This document shows positions 15,977 through 23,364 of a DNA stretch of 64,000 nucleotides, in pieces. The notes beneath the pieces were generated by a model. That model was not told where the DNA came from, ran no database searches, and saw only the letters and a program-made list of their open reading frames with translations. The position numbers were made by a program, and so were the translations under genes. Every line of letters begins with the position of its first letter. The stretch's first letter is position 1. Source of the stretch: an uncultured Fidelibacterota bacterium (GTDB lineage Bacteria > Fidelibacterota > Marinisomatia > Marinisomatales > Marinisomataceae); contig CACHCR010000005.1 of NCBI GenBank assembly GCA_902578385.1, forward strand, positions 2,707 to 66,706. Reading direction: 5' to 3'.

Positions 15977-17818
15977 TTACTTTTTCGCAGCAAGATATAA
16001 TCTATGTAAGATTATCAAAATTAAAGTTATCCCCACAATATCATTAAAAGGGGAGGGTAGTGATAAGTTTGGCCAATAGTTTTTATCAAAGAATAAAGGA
16101 ACAGCTATAAAAATTGCCATTAAAGCTTCCCCAGTAATTAACCCAGAAGCTATTAAAAGCCCATTATTTTTACCTTCATCTGAAGCGCTTTTACTAGCTA
16201 TATGATTAAGCATTCCTCCAATAAAAATGGGAAGAGTTAATTCTATTGGAAGATATATTCCAATAGCTACTGCTAAAATCGGAACCCTAAAATCTGCATT
16301 TCTATATGCCTGGTATTGATCAATTAGAATGATAATGATTCCTAAAAAAGCTCCTGCATAAATCATTCCCCATTCTAAGTTTCCAGCAAAAACTCCATTG
16401 GCAACATTAGTCATTAGAACTGCTTGGGGAGCAGGTAAATCAGAACTACCGATGCCATAAGCCTCATGAAGAAGTGTCAAAACAATTCCAAGTGTTAAAG
16501 CAGCACTGACAACACCTACTAATTGCATAATTTGCTGCTTCCATGGAGTAGCACCTACTATATTTCCAGTTTTTAGATCTTGAAGGTTGTCACCACCAAT
16601 TGCTGCTGCACAACACACAACTGCACCAATTAATATTGCTGCAGCTGCTCCTTTTGATGAATCAACATCAAAAAAGGTAATAATAAGTAATGAGCTAAAT
16701 AATATAGTTGCAATTGTAACACCTGATATAGGATTATTTGATGATCCAACGACTCCTGCCATGTATGCAGCCACTGCAGAAAAAAGAAAGCCAAAAATTG
16801 CCATTACAAAAGATAAAATAATTGCCGAAGTCCATGATCCTATAATTCCAAAGTATGTTAATGATATAGGAATTAACATCATCACAATAGCCATAAAAAC
16901 ATAATTAATTGGTAAGTCCCTTTCTTCGAGAGAAATATTATCTGAGCTTTCTCTGAGTGTTTTCAAACTTAATTGAATGCTTTCAATCAAAGGTTTTGCA
17001 AGTTGAATTACAGACCAAATTCCGCCAACAACCATAGCGCCTACACCTAGATATCGTATTTTTGCATTCCATATTATATTTGCACTTTCAAAGTAATTAT
17101 CACCCTCAAATCCATATAGGTAAGAGTAAATAGGAATTGCCACAGCCCATGAAATAAGTCCACCAGTAAAAGCTAAAATACCAATATTTCTACCAACAAT
17201 ATATCCTACACTAAACAATGAAGGAGATAGACTTGCTCCCATTCCAAATAATGCTCCTTTAATAGCTACTGCTCCTCCAAGAGCACTTGACCAAACACCA
17301 AATGCTAATTCTCCAAGTTTTACTACTCCTCCCACAAGAGCAGAGAAACCAATCATTTTTAAACTTTTTTGGGATTTTTCAGCATCTGTTTCATGTCCTG
17401 TTTTTAAAACAGCTGCTGTTGCAACGCCTTCTGGAAAGCGTAATTGTGCTTTTAATATTAATGCCCTTCTTAGAGGAACTGTAAATAATGCTCCAAGAAT
17501 TCCACCAACCATAGCAATTTTTGTTACTTCCCAGTAGCTAATGGTATCCCAATAGCCAACAAGTAGAAGAGCAGGTAGTGTAAAAATAACTCCAGCAGCT
17601 AATGATTCTCCAGCCGATGCTGCAGTTTGAACAATATTATTTTCTAATATGTTAGATTCTTTAAAAAGTCTAAGTATCCCCATTGACATTATAGCTGCAG
17701 GAATGGAAGCAGAGATAGTCATCCCAGCATAAAGGCCTAAATATGTCATGGCAGATGATAGAATTATTGATAGAAAAATACTTAAAAAAAACGCTTTGAC
17801 TGTAATCTCATTTTTCAT
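15977..17818 (-). CDS. OPT-family oligopeptide/metal-chelate transporter
   Basis: YLGLYAGMTISASIPAA, ENNIVQTAASAGE, FPEGVATA, GSSNNPISG, LQDLKTG, LPAPQA. Confidence 0.95.
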   Translation of the reverse strand: MKNEITVKAFFLSIFLSIILSSAMTYLGLYAGMTISASIPAAIMSMGILRLFKESNILENNIVQTAASAGESLAAGVIFTLPALLLVGYWDTISYWEVTKIAMVGGILGALFTVPLRRALILKAQLRFPEGVATAAVLKTGHETDAEKSQKSLKMIGFSALVGGVVKLGELAFGVWSSALGGAVAIKGALFGMGASLSPSLFSVGYIVGRNIGILAFTGGLISWAVAIPIYSYLYGFEGDNYFESANIIWNAKIRYLGVGAMVVGGIWSVIQLAKPLIESIQLSLKTLRESSDNISLEERDLPINYVFMAIVMMLIPISLTYFGIIGSWTSAIILSFVMAIFGFLFSAVAAYMAGVVGSSNNPISGVTIATILFSSLLIITFFDVDSSKGAAAAILIGAVVCCAAAIGGDNLQDLKTGNIVGATPWKQQIMQLVGVVSAALTLGIVLTLLHEAYGIGSSDLPAPQAVLMTNVANGVFAGNLEWGMIYAGAFLGIIIILIDQYQAYRNADFRVPILAVAIGIYLPIELTLPIFIGGMLNHIASKSASDEGKNNGLLIASGLITGEALMAIFIAVPLFFDKNYWPNLSLPSPFNDIVGITLILIILHRLYLAAKK

Positions 17819-17849
17819 AATCTTAACTTAATAAATTTTTAAAGTAAAA

Positions 17850-18146
17850 ATGAAAAAAACTATTCTAAGCATAACAATTCTTTCTTTTACCTTCCTTAGT
17901 TTACATGTACATAGTCATAAACATGAGCATGCATTCGATGAAGATCATGCTTCAGATCATATTACGGTAGAGGAAGATTGTGGTTTTTGTTTGTTCAATA
18001 GTGAGGATTCATTAGCAGAATCGTCGACATTTTCTGCAAAAATTCACTTTAAAAATATTTCTTTAGAAAAGTATATAGTCAACTATATATCTTTCAGATT
18101 ATCTTGTTTCTTAAACAAGTCCCCCCCCTCAATAATTAACTCATGA
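17850..18146 (+). CDS. DUF2946/CruR-like His- and CxxC-containing leader protein
   Basis: Signal-like N-terminus, HVHSHKHEH, DCGFC, C-terminal NKSPP; immediately upstream of a TonB receptor. Confidence 0.72.
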   Translation: MKKTILSITILSFTFLSLHVHSHKHEHAFDEDHASDHITVEEDCGFCLFNSEDSLAESSTFSAKIHFKNISLEKYIVNYISFRLSCFLNKSPPSIINS

Positions 18147-18150
18147 CAAG

Positions 18151-18179
18151 TTGATATCAGTTTTTGATATCAAAGTTTT
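18151..18179 (+). promoter_or_regulatory. 9-bp inverted repeat between leader and receptor (attenuator/terminator or operator candidate)
   Basis: TTGATATCA-GTTTT-TGATATCAA followed by AGTTTT. Confidence 0.5.
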
Positions 18180-18202
18180 AACAAATCATTTTAGGAGAAA
18201 AA

Positions 18203-20605
18203 ATGAAAAACTATTTTAGTTTAATAATATTAATAAGTGCACTATTTGCACAAAACGAAGTGGCAGAATCTGATTCATTGAATCCGATTTCACTTGAAGG
18301 TGTTGAAGTTTATTCATCTTTAAGAAGTGTCAATGAAGGTGATCTTGCTGCTTCTGCTATTATTTTTAATGATGAATTAAAAGTAATGGAAGGACAACAC
18401 TTTAGTGACTTACTTTTAAAAGTCCCTAATTTGAATTATGCTGGTGGTACTTCTAGACCAAGATATTTTCAAATTAGAGGTGAAGGTTCTGTTAGCAGAT
18501 ATGCAGACCAAGGACCTCCAAGTCCTTACGTTGGATTAGTTTTGGATGGAATGGACCTATCTGAACTTGGAATGATTACACCATTATTTGATATGCAACA
18601 AGTTGAAGTATTAATGGGTGTTCAAACCAGTTTATTCGGTGCGTCAGCTTCAGGTTTAATAAACTTCAAAACAAACGACCCTACAGATGAAAAGGGTGGT
18701 TATGTTATGACTCAATTTGGTTCATACAATACCTATACCAATGGTCTTGTTTATAATTTGCCGTTTGAAAATGGATGGAAATTAAGACTTGTTGGTCATT
18801 CTAATGTATCAGATGGGTACAAAGAGAATGTTGCATTAGGTGATAACTATTCTTCTGCGGATAGAAATGAAACATCTTTAAGAGTTAAAATGCTTAAAGA
18901 AGGTGATTTAATTACTCAAAAATACACCATAATTCATTCTGATTTTGATAATGGTTATGATAATTGGGCACCAGATAATAATACCGACAACATTACGTAT
19001 TCTGATAATCCAGGAAAAGACAGTCAAAAGTCACAAATTTTTATCGCTGACTATAAATATGATTTAGGTGAGCAAATTGTAGACTTTAATATTGGAATGT
19101 CAAGTAATGAAACATTGCACAGTTACGATTCTGACTGGGGTAACTATGACTTCTGGCTTAACTTCGATGGTGATGACCATCATGAAGATGACCATGATGA
19201 TCATGGTGACGAGCATGGAGATGATGATCATGATGATGATCATGACGATGACCATGGAGATGATGACCATGATGATGACCATGACGATGACCACGATGAT
19301 TTTGATTACATGTCATATGATTTCTTTGATTCATTTGAAAGAGATATTGATACAAGAACAGTTGATTTAAGATTTAGATCAAACGTTAATGACAATAATA
19401 GAGTTGACTATGTTTTTGGATTGTATAATTCTACTTATGAAGAAACAACAGATGCTGCTGGATACGTTTTTGGCGGATCTGCTACTGGATTATCTACAGG
19501 GTATGATATTATTACAAAATCATTATATGGTGAACTAGCATATAATTTCAAAAATTCATCAACTTTAGCTGTTGGTTTCAGACATGAAGCAAGAGACATT
19601 GATTATTTTGATTTTGAAAATGCTAGCGGAAGTTTTGAGTTAGATGGCGACTGGAATACCTCATTCAAGGTTTCATATGAGATGCATCCAACAAGTAATC
19701 TTCATTGGTATATTTATGCTGCTGAAGGTTATCATCCGGCAGGAATTAATCAAAATCCATATTTAGATCTTGAAGACAAGACTTACGATGATGAAATCTA
19801 TACTGATGTAACAACTGGAATTAGATGGTATACTGATAACATTAAATTGACAACTTCATTGTTCTACTTAGAACATGATGGACACATCTTTGAAGCAACT
19901 GAACAATTAGATCCAGCAAATCCTAATGCTTTTGCATTTTTTAAACAAAATGCAGATTCAGGATATGAATATGGAACTGAAACTCATGGTCAATTTCAAT
20001 TTTCAGATAAATTATCTATGGGCTTAACTTTAGGTTATATGAGTTCTGAAATTCATTTTGGAGACCATGATGACCACGGTGGACATGATGACCATGGAGA
20101 CGATCATGATGATCACGGAGATGATGACCATGATGATGACCATGACGATGACCATGATGATGACCATGGAGATGATGACCATGATGACCATGGAGATGAT
20201 GACCATGACGACCATGGAGACGATCATGATGATCATGGTGGACATGAAGGACATGCCGATCACGGACAAAAAGCTCATGCTCCAAATTGGAATTATAGCT
20301 TATCATTTAACTATAATTTCACTGAAGATAGTTCATTGATGGTTGAAATTGCAGGTAAAGATTCATTTGTCTTTGATTCAATGCATGATGAATATGAGTC
20401 TGAACCATATCATTTATTAAATGCTTATTACTCGCATTCATTTAATGATCTAAGGTTAGGATTCTACGCTAAAAACATCCTTGATGAGTCTTATGCTGAT
20501 CGTGGATTTATTATGGCGTTAGAACCTCCTCATTTCCATGAGGAACTATATAAATCATTTGGCCCTCCAAGAGAAATTGGAATGTCATTAACATATAGTT
20601 TCTAA
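18203..20605 (+). CDS. TonB-dependent receptor with two His/Asp-rich insertions (putative metal uptake)
   Basis: Signal peptide, TonB-box-like LEGVEVYS, plug PNLNYAGGTSRPRYFQIRG, KNILDESY, terminal LTYSF; SD TAGGAG. Confidence 0.92.
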   Translation: MKNYFSLIILISALFAQNEVAESDSLNPISLEGVEVYSSLRSVNEGDLAASAIIFNDELKVMEGQHFSDLLLKVPNLNYAGGTSRPRYFQIRGEGSVSRYADQGPPSPYVGLVLDGMDLSELGMITPLFDMQQVEVLMGVQTSLFGASASGLINFKTNDPTDEKGGYVMTQFGSYNTYTNGLVYNLPFENGWKLRLVGHSNVSDGYKENVALGDNYSSADRNETSLRVKMLKEGDLITQKYTIIHSDFDNGYDNWAPDNNTDNITYSDNPGKDSQKSQIFIADYKYDLGEQIVDFNIGMSSNETLHSYDSDWGNYDFWLNFDGDDHHEDDHDDHGDEHGDDDHDDDHDDDHGDDDHDDDHDDDHDDFDYMSYDFFDSFERDIDTRTVDLRFRSNVNDNNRVDYVFGLYNSTYEETTDAAGYVFGGSATGLSTGYDIITKSLYGELAYNFKNSSTLAVGFRHEARDIDYFDFENASGSFELDGDWNTSFKVSYEMHPTSNLHWYIYAAEGYHPAGINQNPYLDLEDKTYDDEIYTDVTTGIRWYTDNIKLTTSLFYLEHDGHIFEATEQLDPANPNAFAFFKQNADSGYEYGTETHGQFQFSDKLSMGLTLGYMSSEIHFGDHDDHGGHDDHGDDHDDHGDDDHDDDHDDDHDDDHGDDDHDDHGDDDHDDHGDDHDDHGGHEGHADHGQKAHAPNWNYSLSFNYNFTEDSSLMVEIAGKDSFVFDSMHDEYESEPYHLLNAYYSHSFNDLRLGFYAKNILDESYADRGFIMALEPPHFHEELYKSFGPPREIGMSLTYSF
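19166..19300 (+). repeat. Coding tandem repeat, (G)D2-3H units, tract 1
   Basis: GAT/GAC/CAT codon repeats encoding 11 His in about 45 residues. Confidence 0.95.
20054..20278 (+). repeat. Coding tandem repeat, (G)D2-3H units, tract 2
   Basis: About 75 residues with about 21 His. Confidence 0.95.
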
Positions 20606-20615
20606 CATCTTATTT

Positions 20616-20653
20616 TCATAATTTAGCGGGTATTATTGCCCGCTAAATTATGA
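20616..20653. promoter_or_regulatory. 15-bp perfect inverted repeat overlapping the polA start codon
   Basis: TCATAATTTAGCGGG-TATTATTG-CCCGCTAAATTATGA. Confidence 0.7.
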
Positions 20654-23364
20654 GTTCAACAAAACAAAAAAGATTATTCATTATTGATGGTTATGCTACC
20701 TTATATCGAGCGCATTACGCATTAATTAGAAATCCACTTACTAATTCTGCAGGAACTCCAACAAGCGCTATTTTTGGTTTTGCAAATCAAGTTTTTCAAT
20801 TGATTGAAGAGGAAAAACCAGATTATTTAGTAGCTGCATTTGATTCTAAAGGTAAAAATTTTAGACATAAAATTTTCGAAGAATACAAAGCTAATCGATC
20901 TGAAATGCCAGATGAAATACAGACTCAATTACCTTATTTATGGACGCTTCTTCAAGGAATGAATATTCCTGTTTTAAGAGTAGATGGCGTTGAAGCTGAT
21001 GATATTATTGGAACTGTTGCTAAGCAATGTAGTGATAATGGCTTACAGTGTAATATTGTTAGTGGTGATAAAGATTTTATGCAATTAATTGATGATTCAA
21101 CATTCCTATATGCTCCTCAAGCTAGAAAAAGAGAAAAAGAAATATTTGATGTTAATAAAGTTGTAGAAAAATGGGGAGTAGGTCCTGAAAATATCATTGA
21201 TTTGCTTGGTCTTATGGGAGATAGCTCTGATAATGTTCCAGGCGTCCAAGGAGTTGGCCCAAAAACAGCTATGAAGCTTATTCAAGAGCACGGAAATATT
21301 GAGAATATTTATGAAAACATAGATTCTATTAAAAATGAAAAAATGAAAGATAAATTACTTTCAGATAAGGATAATGCTTTATTAAGTAAACAGCTTGTAA
21401 CCATTCTTACAGATGTAAATATTGATTCATCTGTAGAAGATTTCGTAATCAAGGAAATGAATACATCAAAACTTGAGGATATTTTCAAAGAGTTGGAGTT
21501 TTCTGGATTGCTTAAAAAAATTGGATCTACTGAAACCATTGAACAAAAATCAGTAAATAGAAAGAAAGATTATAAGAACATTCTAAATCTAGAAGATTTG
21601 ATTGGTTTTGTTGAGTCGCTTGAGCAGGGTAAATGGTTGTCAGTTGATTTAGAGACTACCTCTGTGAATCCGATGGCAGCTGAAATTGTTGGATTTAGTT
21701 TTTCAACAAAGAAAGATACTGGATTTTATGTTCCAATTTTATTTAAAGATAAGAAAGAAAATTTATTTGGGAACAACGATTTAGAAGAAGCAATTAGAAT
21801 ATTAAAACCATATTTAGAAGATGAAAATATTCCAAAAACAGGACAAAATATTAAGTACGACGCTCTTATTATGAAGCGTTTTGGAATTGATCTTAAAGGT
21901 ATTGAATTTGATACTATGATTGCTGCACATTTACTTAACCCAAACGCTAGGTCATACAAGCTTGATAATTTATCGTTAGCTCATTTGAACTATAAAATGG
22001 TACCGATTAAAGACTTAATAGGAGTTGGAAAAAATCAAATTACCATGGACCAAGTTTCTTTAGATGATATATCTTTTTATGCTGCAGAAGATGCAGATGT
22101 TGTTATTGAATTAACTGAAATTTTTATGAAAGATTTAAAAAAACAAAAATTATTTAATTATTTCAAGTCCATAGAAATTGATTTATTACCTGTGCTTATA
22201 GATATGCAATTTAATGGTATTTTTATTGATAAAGACTACTTGGAAAACAGATCCAATGAGATTGGCAAAAAAATTGAGTCATTGGAATCAGAAATAATTG
22301 ATTTGGCTAGTGAAGAGTTTAATCTTAACTCATCGCAACAGCTTGCTGTGATACTTTTTGACAAATTAAAACTTCCAATGATTAAAAAAAGGTCTACTGC
22401 AGAAGCTGTTTTAAGTGAGTTGAAGGATAAACATCCTTTACCAGAGCTAATTCTTTCTTACAGAAAGTTGTATAAGTTAAAAAATACCTATTTAGACCCA
22501 TTACCATCTTATATTATTTCTGATACTCAGCGAGTTCATTCATCGTTCAATCAAACAATGACTGCAACAGGAAGATTATCTACAAGCAGTCCAAATTTTC
22601 AAAACATACCAATTAGAACTGAGGATGGTAAAGAAATAAGGAAAGCAATTAAAGCACAATCAAATGAGTATCAAATTTTCTCCGCGGATTATTCACAAGT
22701 AGAATTAAGAGTAATGGCGCATCTTAGTGGAGATGCATCATTAATTTCTGCATTAAATAATGGCGAGGATATACATACTTTTACTGCAAAAAATATTTTT
22801 AATGTAGATAATGATGATATGGTTCTTCCAGAAATGAGAAGGATAGCTAAAATTGTAAATTTTGGAATCATGTATGGAGCAGGTCCATTTAGATTAAGTC
22901 AAGAACTTGACATTCCATTTGGAGAAGCAAAGCAAATTAAAGATGCATATTTCAATAAATATAAAGGAATTGAAGAATATATTGAAAATTCTAAGCTTCA
23001 GATTAAAGAAACTAAATCTGTTGAAACTTTGCTAGGAAGAAAGAGAGCTGTTTGGGACTCAGATAGTCAAAATAAAATTCGAAGAGATGCTGCTGAGCGA
23101 ATGGCAATTAATATGCCAATTCAAGGAACTGCCGCAGAAATGATTAAATTGGCTATGATAAAAATTCATCGTCAAATGAATAAAGAAAATTTAAAATCTA
23201 AACTCATCATGCAAATTCATGATGAGTTGTTATTAGAAGTCCACCAAGATGAAATTGATTATATTTCAAAGATGGTAATTGAACATATGAGAGATGCTAT
23301 GAAGCTTGATGTTCCAATTGAAATAGATTTTGGCGTTGGTCCTTCATGGTATGAGGCGCATTAA
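20650..23364 (+). CDS. polA: DNA polymerase I
   Basis: 5'-exonuclease (IIDG..YRAHYA, EADD, GDSSDN), 3'-5' exonuclease (DLET), motifs A DYSQVELR, B RRIAKIVNFGIMYG, C QIHDEL. Confidence 0.99.
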   Translation: MSSTKQKRLFIIDGYATLYRAHYALIRNPLTNSAGTPTSAIFGFANQVFQLIEEEKPDYLVAAFDSKGKNFRHKIFEEYKANRSEMPDEIQTQLPYLWTLLQGMNIPVLRVDGVEADDIIGTVAKQCSDNGLQCNIVSGDKDFMQLIDDSTFLYAPQARKREKEIFDVNKVVEKWGVGPENIIDLLGLMGDSSDNVPGVQGVGPKTAMKLIQEHGNIENIYENIDSIKNEKMKDKLLSDKDNALLSKQLVTILTDVNIDSSVEDFVIKEMNTSKLEDIFKELEFSGLLKKIGSTETIEQKSVNRKKDYKNILNLEDLIGFVESLEQGKWLSVDLETTSVNPMAAEIVGFSFSTKKDTGFYVPILFKDKKENLFGNNDLEEAIRILKPYLEDENIPKTGQNIKYDALIMKRFGIDLKGIEFDTMIAAHLLNPNARSYKLDNLSLAHLNYKMVPIKDLIGVGKNQITMDQVSLDDISFYAAEDADVVIELTEIFMKDLKKQKLFNYFKSIEIDLLPVLIDMQFNGIFIDKDYLENRSNEIGKKIESLESEIIDLASEEFNLNSSQQLAVILFDKLKLPMIKKRSTAEAVLSELKDKHPLPELILSYRKLYKLKNTYLDPLPSYIISDTQRVHSSFNQTMTATGRLSTSSPNFQNIPIRTEDGKEIRKAIKAQSNEYQIFSADYSQVELRVMAHLSGDASLISALNNGEDIHTFTAKNIFNVDNDDMVLPEMRRIAKIVNFGIMYGAGPFRLSQELDIPFGEAKQIKDAYFNKYKGIEEYIENSKLQIKETKSVETLLGRKRAVWDSDSQNKIRRDAAERMAINMPIQGTAAEMIKLAMIKIHRQMNKENLKSKLIMQIHDELLLEVHQDEIDYISKMVIEHMRDAMKLDVPIEIDFGVGPSWYEAH

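Follow-up and report, generated by a model that had tools for sequence, protein, structure and literature searches.

A candidate metal-modulated ribosome-arrest leader ending in KSPP upstream of a TonB-dependent receptor in Marinisoma

Can a small peptide that ends in Lys-Ser-Pro-Pro, with lysine where RAPP arrest peptides carry arginine, act as a metal sensor for the TonB-dependent receptor gene that follows it? The locus that raises this question lies in a 64,000-nt stretch of DNA (the window) from an uncultured marine Fidelibacterota bacterium of the genus Marinisoma, whose genome of roughly 1 Mb is 76% complete and has a GC content of about 30%. Two characterised leaders frame the question. 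In the available excerpts of PMC9426467, CruR stalls the ribosome at RAPP without copper, blocks Rho and turns on an importer; the spacing, 45 residues, matters. CutF is described as stalling with copper and thereby opening a Shine-Dalgarno hairpin (excerpts of PMC9973294; bioRxiv 2025.02.05.636593). According to the accessible part of PMC9973294, leaders of this kind, which contain Cys, His or both, are frequently found ahead of TonB receptors, and not all of them are thought to be copper-specific (PMC9973294; bioRxiv 2025.02.05.636593, in excerpt).

An earlier note, made from the letters of the window, had read the leader as a 98-aa ORF ending 56 nt before the receptor, with a signal-like start, a His cluster, CGFC, a spacer of about 40 residues and a C-terminal NKSPP. 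All of these parts are present at the place given, while the length, the gap and the SIINS that follows NKSPP belong to the sequence as assembled (17850–18146, 98 aa), which is extended by one extra C. The C8 run at 18121–18128 is one base shorter in the contigs of four out of four independent runs (three RNA, one DNA; four studies), and the true leader end is therefore NKSPPQ-stop; the SIINS tail arises because of the extra C. So corrected, the ORF spans 17850–18135 on the forward strand (94 aa, stop codon at 18133–18135), NKSPP stands one residue from the end, and the gap to the receptor is 67 nt. NKSPPQ-stop is also the usual ending among close homologues in the alignment. Tails after the C run differ between database entries (Q, SIINS, LNN; P0001, P0041); KSPP is unaffected by extra Cs, and beyond the four runs error and slippage look alike.

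The corrected leader opens with a signal-like N-terminus (17850–17903, forward strand), where by eye a basic start is followed by 14 mostly hydrophobic residues (5–18); the same pattern recurs in our alignment of leaders (A1), and this segment may serve export or membrane anchoring. The His cluster follows (residues 19–37, 17904–17960, forward strand; His at 19, 21, 23, 25, 27, 33 and 37), then the CxxC (CGFC, residues 44–47, 17979–17990, forward strand), whose Cys pair is invariant in the alignment, and finally the Asn-Lys-Ser-Pro-Pro codons (residues 89–93, 18114–18128, forward strand), the candidate arrest motif. The spacer from CxxC to K90 is 42 residues. Among 795 ATG-started ORFs of 50–170 aa in the window genome, a hydrophobic N-terminus, a CxxC and a diproline in the last 15 residues occur together once, in the window leader; one other ORF has CxxC and PP without the architecture. 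RNA contigs cover the leader and one spans leader and receptor, coverage that speaks neither to expression level nor to a single transcript.

Upstream, the leader start codon is separated by 31 nt (17819–17849) from that of a divergent OPT-family oligopeptide transporter gene (15977–17818, reverse strand), a synteny marker; a second marker, a polA-like gene named from its translation (20650–23364, forward strand), lies downstream and is common to several outgroup loci. The 31-nt gap, the site of a TPP aptamer in relatives, holds no aptamer here and no Shine-Dalgarno sequence for the leader, and a scan for sigma-70 promoters and terminators returned chance-level matches only. Given such a gap, a near-leaderless leader mRNA and promoters within the facing genes are likely.

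Conservation shows what selection acts on. Profile A1, made from 20 divergent leaders (22–80% identity to the first member), matches 31 of 38 Marinisoma genomes. Of the seven others, G009 and G029 are leaderless at an intact locus, contigs of G004, G007 and G010 end at or ahead of the leader site, and in G015 and G035 the receptor itself went unmatched. Ten of about 95 A1 columns are invariant (M1, I5, H21, both Cys and N-K-S-P-P), H21 being the sole invariant His of the cluster in the genus. N-K-S-P-P is kept in 25 of 25 genus leaders with synonymous variation at all five codons, and CxxC and Lys are separated by 42 residues in 23 of them and by 41 in two, so that the conserved CxxC-spacer-xPP block expected in the earlier note was borne out. 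Leader indels precede CxxC; the CxxC–KSPP interval varies by one residue, in two genomes. Counted in the alignment, 77 of 83 database homologues have NKSPP; the remaining six comprise four truncated or divergent tails, one frameshift and one NKPPP. The dN/dS of the leader is 0.16–0.74 and below 1 in 13 of 13 pairs. The leader ORF is thus a real, selected protein feature under purifying selection.

The selected entity might be the finished product: a small protein that is exported, binds metal as a chaperone or buffer and acts in trans with the receptor, KSPP being structural. A signal-like start combined with His and Cys ligands would suit such a protein, as would a weak similarity to the models of CzcI and LIC10965 (E about 0.008), which falls far short of the cut-off. 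It sits badly with so few invariant positions and with a spacer that diverges in sequence but not in length; moreover, the leader comes first in gene order, ahead of the receptor at every locus where both are seen, and CruR and CutF act in cis in the accessible descriptions. We therefore hold a trans-acting protein to be very improbable and favour a leader that acts in cis.

The same features bear on the kind of leader this may be. Its first-gene position and fixed CxxC-to-motif spacing agree with the CruR/CutF-type architecture proposed at the outset. It is shorter than 150 aa, has PP in its last 15 residues and lies within 1000 nt of a same-strand gene, as in the rule set of PMC9973294, and its Cys/His motif stands at a fixed distance (42/41 residues) from the Pro motif, a criterion of the same source; the first position of the motif, Arg in the RAPP type, is Lys. 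The DUF2946 search suggested in the earlier note gave the opposite answer. Neither the window protein nor six other KSPP proteins nor 21 RxPP parents match Pfam DUF2946/PF11162 (above 23.7 bits), one distant relative scores 12.2 bits, and DUF2946 membership was rejected on this result together with KSPP in place of RAPP in all 25 genus leaders. Among Atlas clusters with a Pfam assignment, the closest one carries DUF2946 in 20% of its members (score 0.92), which is a lead.

A1 weakly matches ORFs that end in RAPP in a different genus of the order. The receptor behind those ORFs is ZnuD-like, in the sense of similarity only (NCBIfam E 1e-46, 160 bits against a cut-off of 950); its best solved relative is ZnuD (E 2.7e-29), with OprC at 1.7e-7. 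Such a receptor was found in 66 of the 195 genomes examined from the rest of the order, against none of 38 Marinisoma genomes, and 28 of the 30 best ZnuD-like loci examined carry signal-His-Cys leaders ending in RAPP, RGPP or RPPP. Omitting two leaders with ambiguous bases and two loci without a leader left a set of 26 parents; 18 have the full CxxC, and 16 of these 18 place the Arg 42 residues beyond it. When the 3690 six-frame ORFs of the genome were scored with an HMM of the 26, the window ORF came top (E 0.0034; next 0.013). The HMM reached basal KSPP leaders down to E 7e-7; of the 20 A1 rows three fell below the matches listed and one at background level. HHalign joins KSPP and RxPP leaders over the His-CxxC part only (96%, E 4.2e-9), a profile search of all collected sequences found two LLRAPP proteins at E 3e-4, and within the genus the parent profile matched four of 38 genomes, always at the position of the KSPP leader; no separate RxPP metal leader was found in Marinisoma.

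The KSPP leader thus likely descends from Arg-type leaders of a zinc-type importer. Given the homology and the equal 42-residue spacer, Lys stands at the Arg position, which upholds the substitution first noticed at this locus. The His cluster had been taken for an addition; since the cluster region holds 2–9 His in the RxPP parents and 3–7 in KSPP leaders, it is inherited instead, with H23 invariant in the parent family, and His/Cys mixtures are described in the accessible part of PMC9973294. The leader–receptor gap is about 500 nt in the one parent locus inspected and much shorter here. The parent family itself (L242-L263; e.g. L255:340-657, L251:274-597), located ahead of ZnuD-like receptors throughout the order, is unannotated, lacks a meaningful Pfam match and carries an extra CxxxC-His motif, and eight of 26 such leaders are without the second Cys of CxxC. 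Elsewhere, at L132:4024-4341 (G211), a CxxC leader ending in RPPP precedes an ABC-2/DUF3526 operon in an arrangement that resembles Caulobacter znuGHI.

In the accessible part of PMC12992588, none of 19 substitutions replaced Arg in ApcA, ApdA and ApdP, all of them impairing arrest; this Arg binds the G2061/U2504/G2505 pocket of 23S rRNA (PMC10951233, in excerpt). KSPP might accordingly be an ordinary EF-P-sensitive diproline pause, or a dead motif, with any control exerted through mRNA pairing between the Ser-Pro codons and the receptor Shine-Dalgarno and through leader translation. EF-P was found in four of five genomes, and 622 long ORFs of the window genome contain KxPP ten times and RxPP twice. 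Arguing for a specific arrest instead, N and K are invariant despite synonymous variation, although RNA pairing needs neither, and the spacer is fixed to one residue. QAPP, HAPP and LPPP also arrest in vitro (PMC10987492, in excerpt), so non-Arg arrest motifs exist. P0094 (127 aa), which contains His and CxxC and ends in HSPP, is another non-Arg variant. On the 23S rRNA sequence, an altered ribosome was rejected as the explanation of Lys: the pocket nucleotides are unchanged in ten Marinisoma 23S genes relative to relatives, and the 2057–2611 A–U pair is common to RxPP users. Domain V of 23S (L275-L284) has 22 fixed differences from relatives, among them a genus-specific paired change near 2070/2441, outside the pocket; the 23S positions follow E. 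coli numbering. A natural Lys version with nameable Arg parents of the same spacer offers a matched pair for arrest chemistry, and motif searches limited to RAPP/RGPP would miss KSPP leaders.

The RNA between leader and receptor bears on the same choice. Where Ser is encoded by TCT, pairing between the Ser-Pro codons and the receptor Shine-Dalgarno is predicted, and a ribosome on PP lowers the predicted opening energy of that site by 3–8 kcal/mol in seven of 27 genomes; in G022, G036 and G011 it stays near 11 kcal/mol with the ribosome in place. The Ser codon is TCT or TCC in 22 of 25 leaders and the first Pro codon is never CCT, which makes up 41% of genome Pro codons. This suggests a constraint at the nucleotide level, and long Shine-Dalgarno-hiding stems reach z-scores of -3.75 and -4.05 in two relatives; both would fit control by mRNA pairing. 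Taken with the protein-level conservation, we consider an ordinary pause or dead motif improbable and retain a specific arrest. In the window, the receptor Shine-Dalgarno (AGGAG, 18193–18197) and start codon lie in a predicted weak local hairpin (18186–18206, forward strand). Shine-Dalgarno occlusion found no support in the window's clade (11 genomes), whose opening energies of 5.9–7.1 kcal/mol resemble those of control genes (median 6.4, n=73) and change by at most 0.5 kcal/mol with a stalled ribosome.

A second element lies in the gap itself, a 9-bp hairpin at 18151–18173 (forward strand) with compensatory and G-U variation among relatives. With five sequences without the hairpin, 90.5% of cells are paired, double changes occur at seven of nine pairs and none of 500 shuffles equals it, a control that sequence kinship can beat. 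RNAalifold over 26 sequences found no consensus structure for the whole gap. The hairpin could be a Rho-type pause site, a processing site or the core of a longer Shine-Dalgarno-hiding stem. A rho-like gene is present by motif match, and in a Rho-site scan the C-over-G excess in the last 120 nt came mostly from the Ser-Pro-Pro codons.

What, then, does the receptor import? The gene at 18203–20605 (forward strand) is a TonB-dependent receptor, as first read (Pfam Plug above cut-off, barrel below it), and an orthologue of TPP-riboswitch-led receptors of the order. A structure model (pLDDT 75, pTM 0.78) predicts a 22-strand barrel in which two His/Asp tracts, between strands 7 and 8 (19163–19321, forward strand) and between strands 17 and 18 (20069–20251, forward strand), are disordered; by strand count both would be extracellular loops. 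In sequence and fold the receptor is nearest to FyuA (4EPA), it matches neither NF038289 nor the ZnuD structure, and its homologues have generic names only. ZnuD has His-rich outer loops. The maximum His count per 30 residues is 7–10 in 27 leader-clade receptors versus 1–4 in 46 outgroup receptors, and is 5 in G009, 3 in G029 and 8 in G004, where the upstream region is missing; the outgroup orthologues are without the His/Asp loops. Genus-wide barrel His gains occur in riboswitch-only alleles too, and therefore either arose before the leader or have no connection with it. Other receptors of the genus and of the outgroup carry an N-terminal carboxypeptidase-like domain, lost in the window's clade (18203–18280).

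Outside Marinisoma, receptor orthologues were found in 80 genomes. In 40 outgroup loci chosen for flank length, a TPP riboswitch stands at the receptor start in 39 (34 over the Rfam cut-off, five at 48–54 bits), the remaining one having no TPP match; seven further loci gave five matches and two cut by contig ends. A CxxC-PP ORF ahead of the receptor is absent from all 47. Several share polA or OPT synteny, and at one locus a gene whose translation looks NMT1/ThiY-like comes after the receptor. The window has no RF00059 match at E up to 1 between 17500 and 18400, nor does its genome, which is 76% complete. Eight of 38 Marinisoma genomes have a TPP match: directly before the receptor, without leader, in G009 and G029; before the leader in G011, G022, G036, G012 and G017, three of them over the Rfam cut-off; and before a different receptor in G007. 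A metagenome scan yielded three loci, all with riboswitch and leader. The leader start codon occupies the receptor start-codon position of G009, and the OPT–leader gap is 96–98 nt with the aptamer versus about 22–50 nt without it, lengths differing by clade. In G029 (L143) the aptamer is weak (42 bits) and the receptor lacks an ATG start, possibly by decay or use of a non-standard start. In G007 the riboswitch and the unrelated TonB receptor behind it lie on a 3-kb contig (L140, G007:C49), possibly a contaminant, next to part of another receptor that bears a ZnuD-type C-terminal motif.

Three states, riboswitch only, riboswitch plus leader and leader only, therefore occur on one receptor lineage. 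Because of the outgroup, riboswitch-only is ancestral. The OPT tree requires at least five changes of riboswitch state, and a single clade of riboswitch-less loci is rejected (p-AU 0.0008, quick OPT tree). G004, G009 and G029 fall outside the leader clade on the receptor tree (support 94), whereas G009 and G029 on the OPT tree, and G009 likewise on gyrB, are nested among leader-bearing genomes. From this conflict we infer that alleles recombine, which leaves the order of events within the genus unsure; repeated riboswitch loss is not fully distinguishable from regain. The coexisting states provide a rare test of regulator switching and may perhaps show how a transporter changes substrate.

A leader that pauses the ribosome in cis could also serve a receptor that still imports thiamine or a vitamer; the leader would then respond to copper, to redox or to the state of secretion, while the two loops rich in His and Asp would be decoys or phage-defence variation. 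The aptamers retained ahead of five leaders fit this, as do the plug core motifs, which persist within the 103 of 163 outgroup-invariant sites that the receptor keeps, a loop length that varies strongly between close relatives, and the sensing of copper by the characterised CxxC leaders in the available excerpts. Gene content points the same way. In five genomes checked, ThiE and PnuC are absent from all and TPK is present in four; G061, a single contig at 96% completeness, carries TPK but neither ThiE nor a further candidate receptor for thiamine, and the leader-bearing receptor may therefore still import thiamine. In 25 of the 38 Marinisoma genomes a TonB receptor gene stands divergent to that of thiamine pyrophosphokinase (L146, G000:C4:7883-11215); it was rejected as a replacement thiamine receptor, being missing from G061.

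Set against thiamine import are the loss of the riboswitch from most leader loci, not as a single clade, and the weakness of the G029 aptamer; about 40 receptor positions that are invariant in the outgroup are altered across the genus, several of them in the plug, and the parent leaders precede ZnuD-like and not OprC-like receptors. That last point also supports a lean to zinc rather than copper, in line with the Zn/Ni/Co sensing raised in the earlier note. We judge the thiamine reading unlikely; the receptor, whose orthologues are TPP-riboswitch-led, was probably repurposed from vitamin to metal uptake. The five genomes checked contain one Fur-family gene and a ZIP transporter but no ZnuA. 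NiSOD is present in only two of them, which makes nickel a weaker candidate than zinc; in one genome (L204:613-1089, G000:C4) the nickel superoxide dismutase gene is followed by a membrane protein gene.

We consider it fairly probable that the leader is a cis-acting, metal-modulated ribosome-arrest leader of the CruR/CutF kind. If so, the case for zinc as the sensed metal is about evenly balanced, and the leader likely keeps the receptor on when metal is scarce, the CruR sign being favoured for an importer. We propose that the nascent chain would be targeted to Sec and that the ribosome would pause with the two Pro codons in the P and A sites, where 42 residues would place the CxxC and His just outside the tunnel and translocon; metal binding would alter the pull on the chain and shorten the pause. 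In several clades receptor expression would persist because the paused ribosome sits on the Ser-Pro codons, the pairing partners of the Shine-Dalgarno, while in the window's clade the ribosome might instead block Rho at the intergenic hairpin. Historically, the leader would have moved from a ZnuD-like operon onto an Omr1-like thiamine receptor, Arg would have become Lys, the loops would have grown and the riboswitch would have been dropped several times. The full proposal, in which a leader kept from the operon of a lost ZnuD-type receptor, Lys-based arrest, His/Asp loops and repeated riboswitch loss together mark the conversion of a vitamin importer into a zinc importer, is tentative and well short of an even chance. 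If true, a riboswitch was swapped for a nascent-peptide sensor, and the starting, double-switch and final states are alive in one genus.

How does this leader compare with named systems? The literature available to us on Lys-type (KxPP) arrest, on Marinimicrobia TPP or zinc, and on riboswitch–arrest-peptide tandems held nothing on such a system; the 29 logos of PMC9973294 Fig. S6, a source available in part, may hold a Lys cluster. Outgroup orthologues resemble the Omr1 TPP-riboswitch thiamine receptors (PMC10881298, in excerpt) in having the aptamer directly at the start, whereas the window locus has lost the aptamer, contains an inserted leader and encodes two His/Asp loops. ZnuD (Neisseria; PDB 4RDR) is the best solved relative of the parent-locus receptor, not of the window receptor. 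Like members of the ApdA/ApdP/SecM and RQH family, the leader is a small, putatively exported uORF with x-small-Pro-Pro close to its C-terminus, and Ser at the second position is partly permissive in RAPP-like arrest peptides (excerpts of PMC10951233, PMC12992588, PMC10987492); it differs in its Lys at the first position, where the natural variants described in the accessible text are R, Q, H, T and L.

The closest likeness is to CruR and CutF. CruR (Bp2923; B. pertussis cruR-bfrG(crtA)-bp2921) is likewise the first gene before a TonB-dependent transporter (PMC9426467, in excerpt) and shares CxxC, fixed spacer and a diproline motif one to three residues from the end; its export signal has a putative counterpart in the signal-like start of the window leader. 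The window leader differs from it in KSPP versus RAPP, a spacer of 42 versus 45 residues, a gap of 67 versus 162 nt and the PF11162 result, and its locus in the absence of a PepSY gene, a receptor of TPP-riboswitch lineage and the low GC content. CutF (Rhodobacter capsulatus cutFOG) resembles it in the Cys motif, Pro-rich end and short gap with a stem-loop, and its Sec signal likewise has a putative counterpart; Shine-Dalgarno-hiding stems like those of CutF are predicted in several Marinisoma clades, though unsupported in the window's. It departs from CutF in having CxxC rather than CxxxC and in its target, an importer rather than a detoxifying oxidase, for which the opposite sign of control is therefore expected. 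Judged from its sequence, the leader is a real, previously uncharacterised variant of the CruR/CutF kind that stands outside DUF2946 by test.
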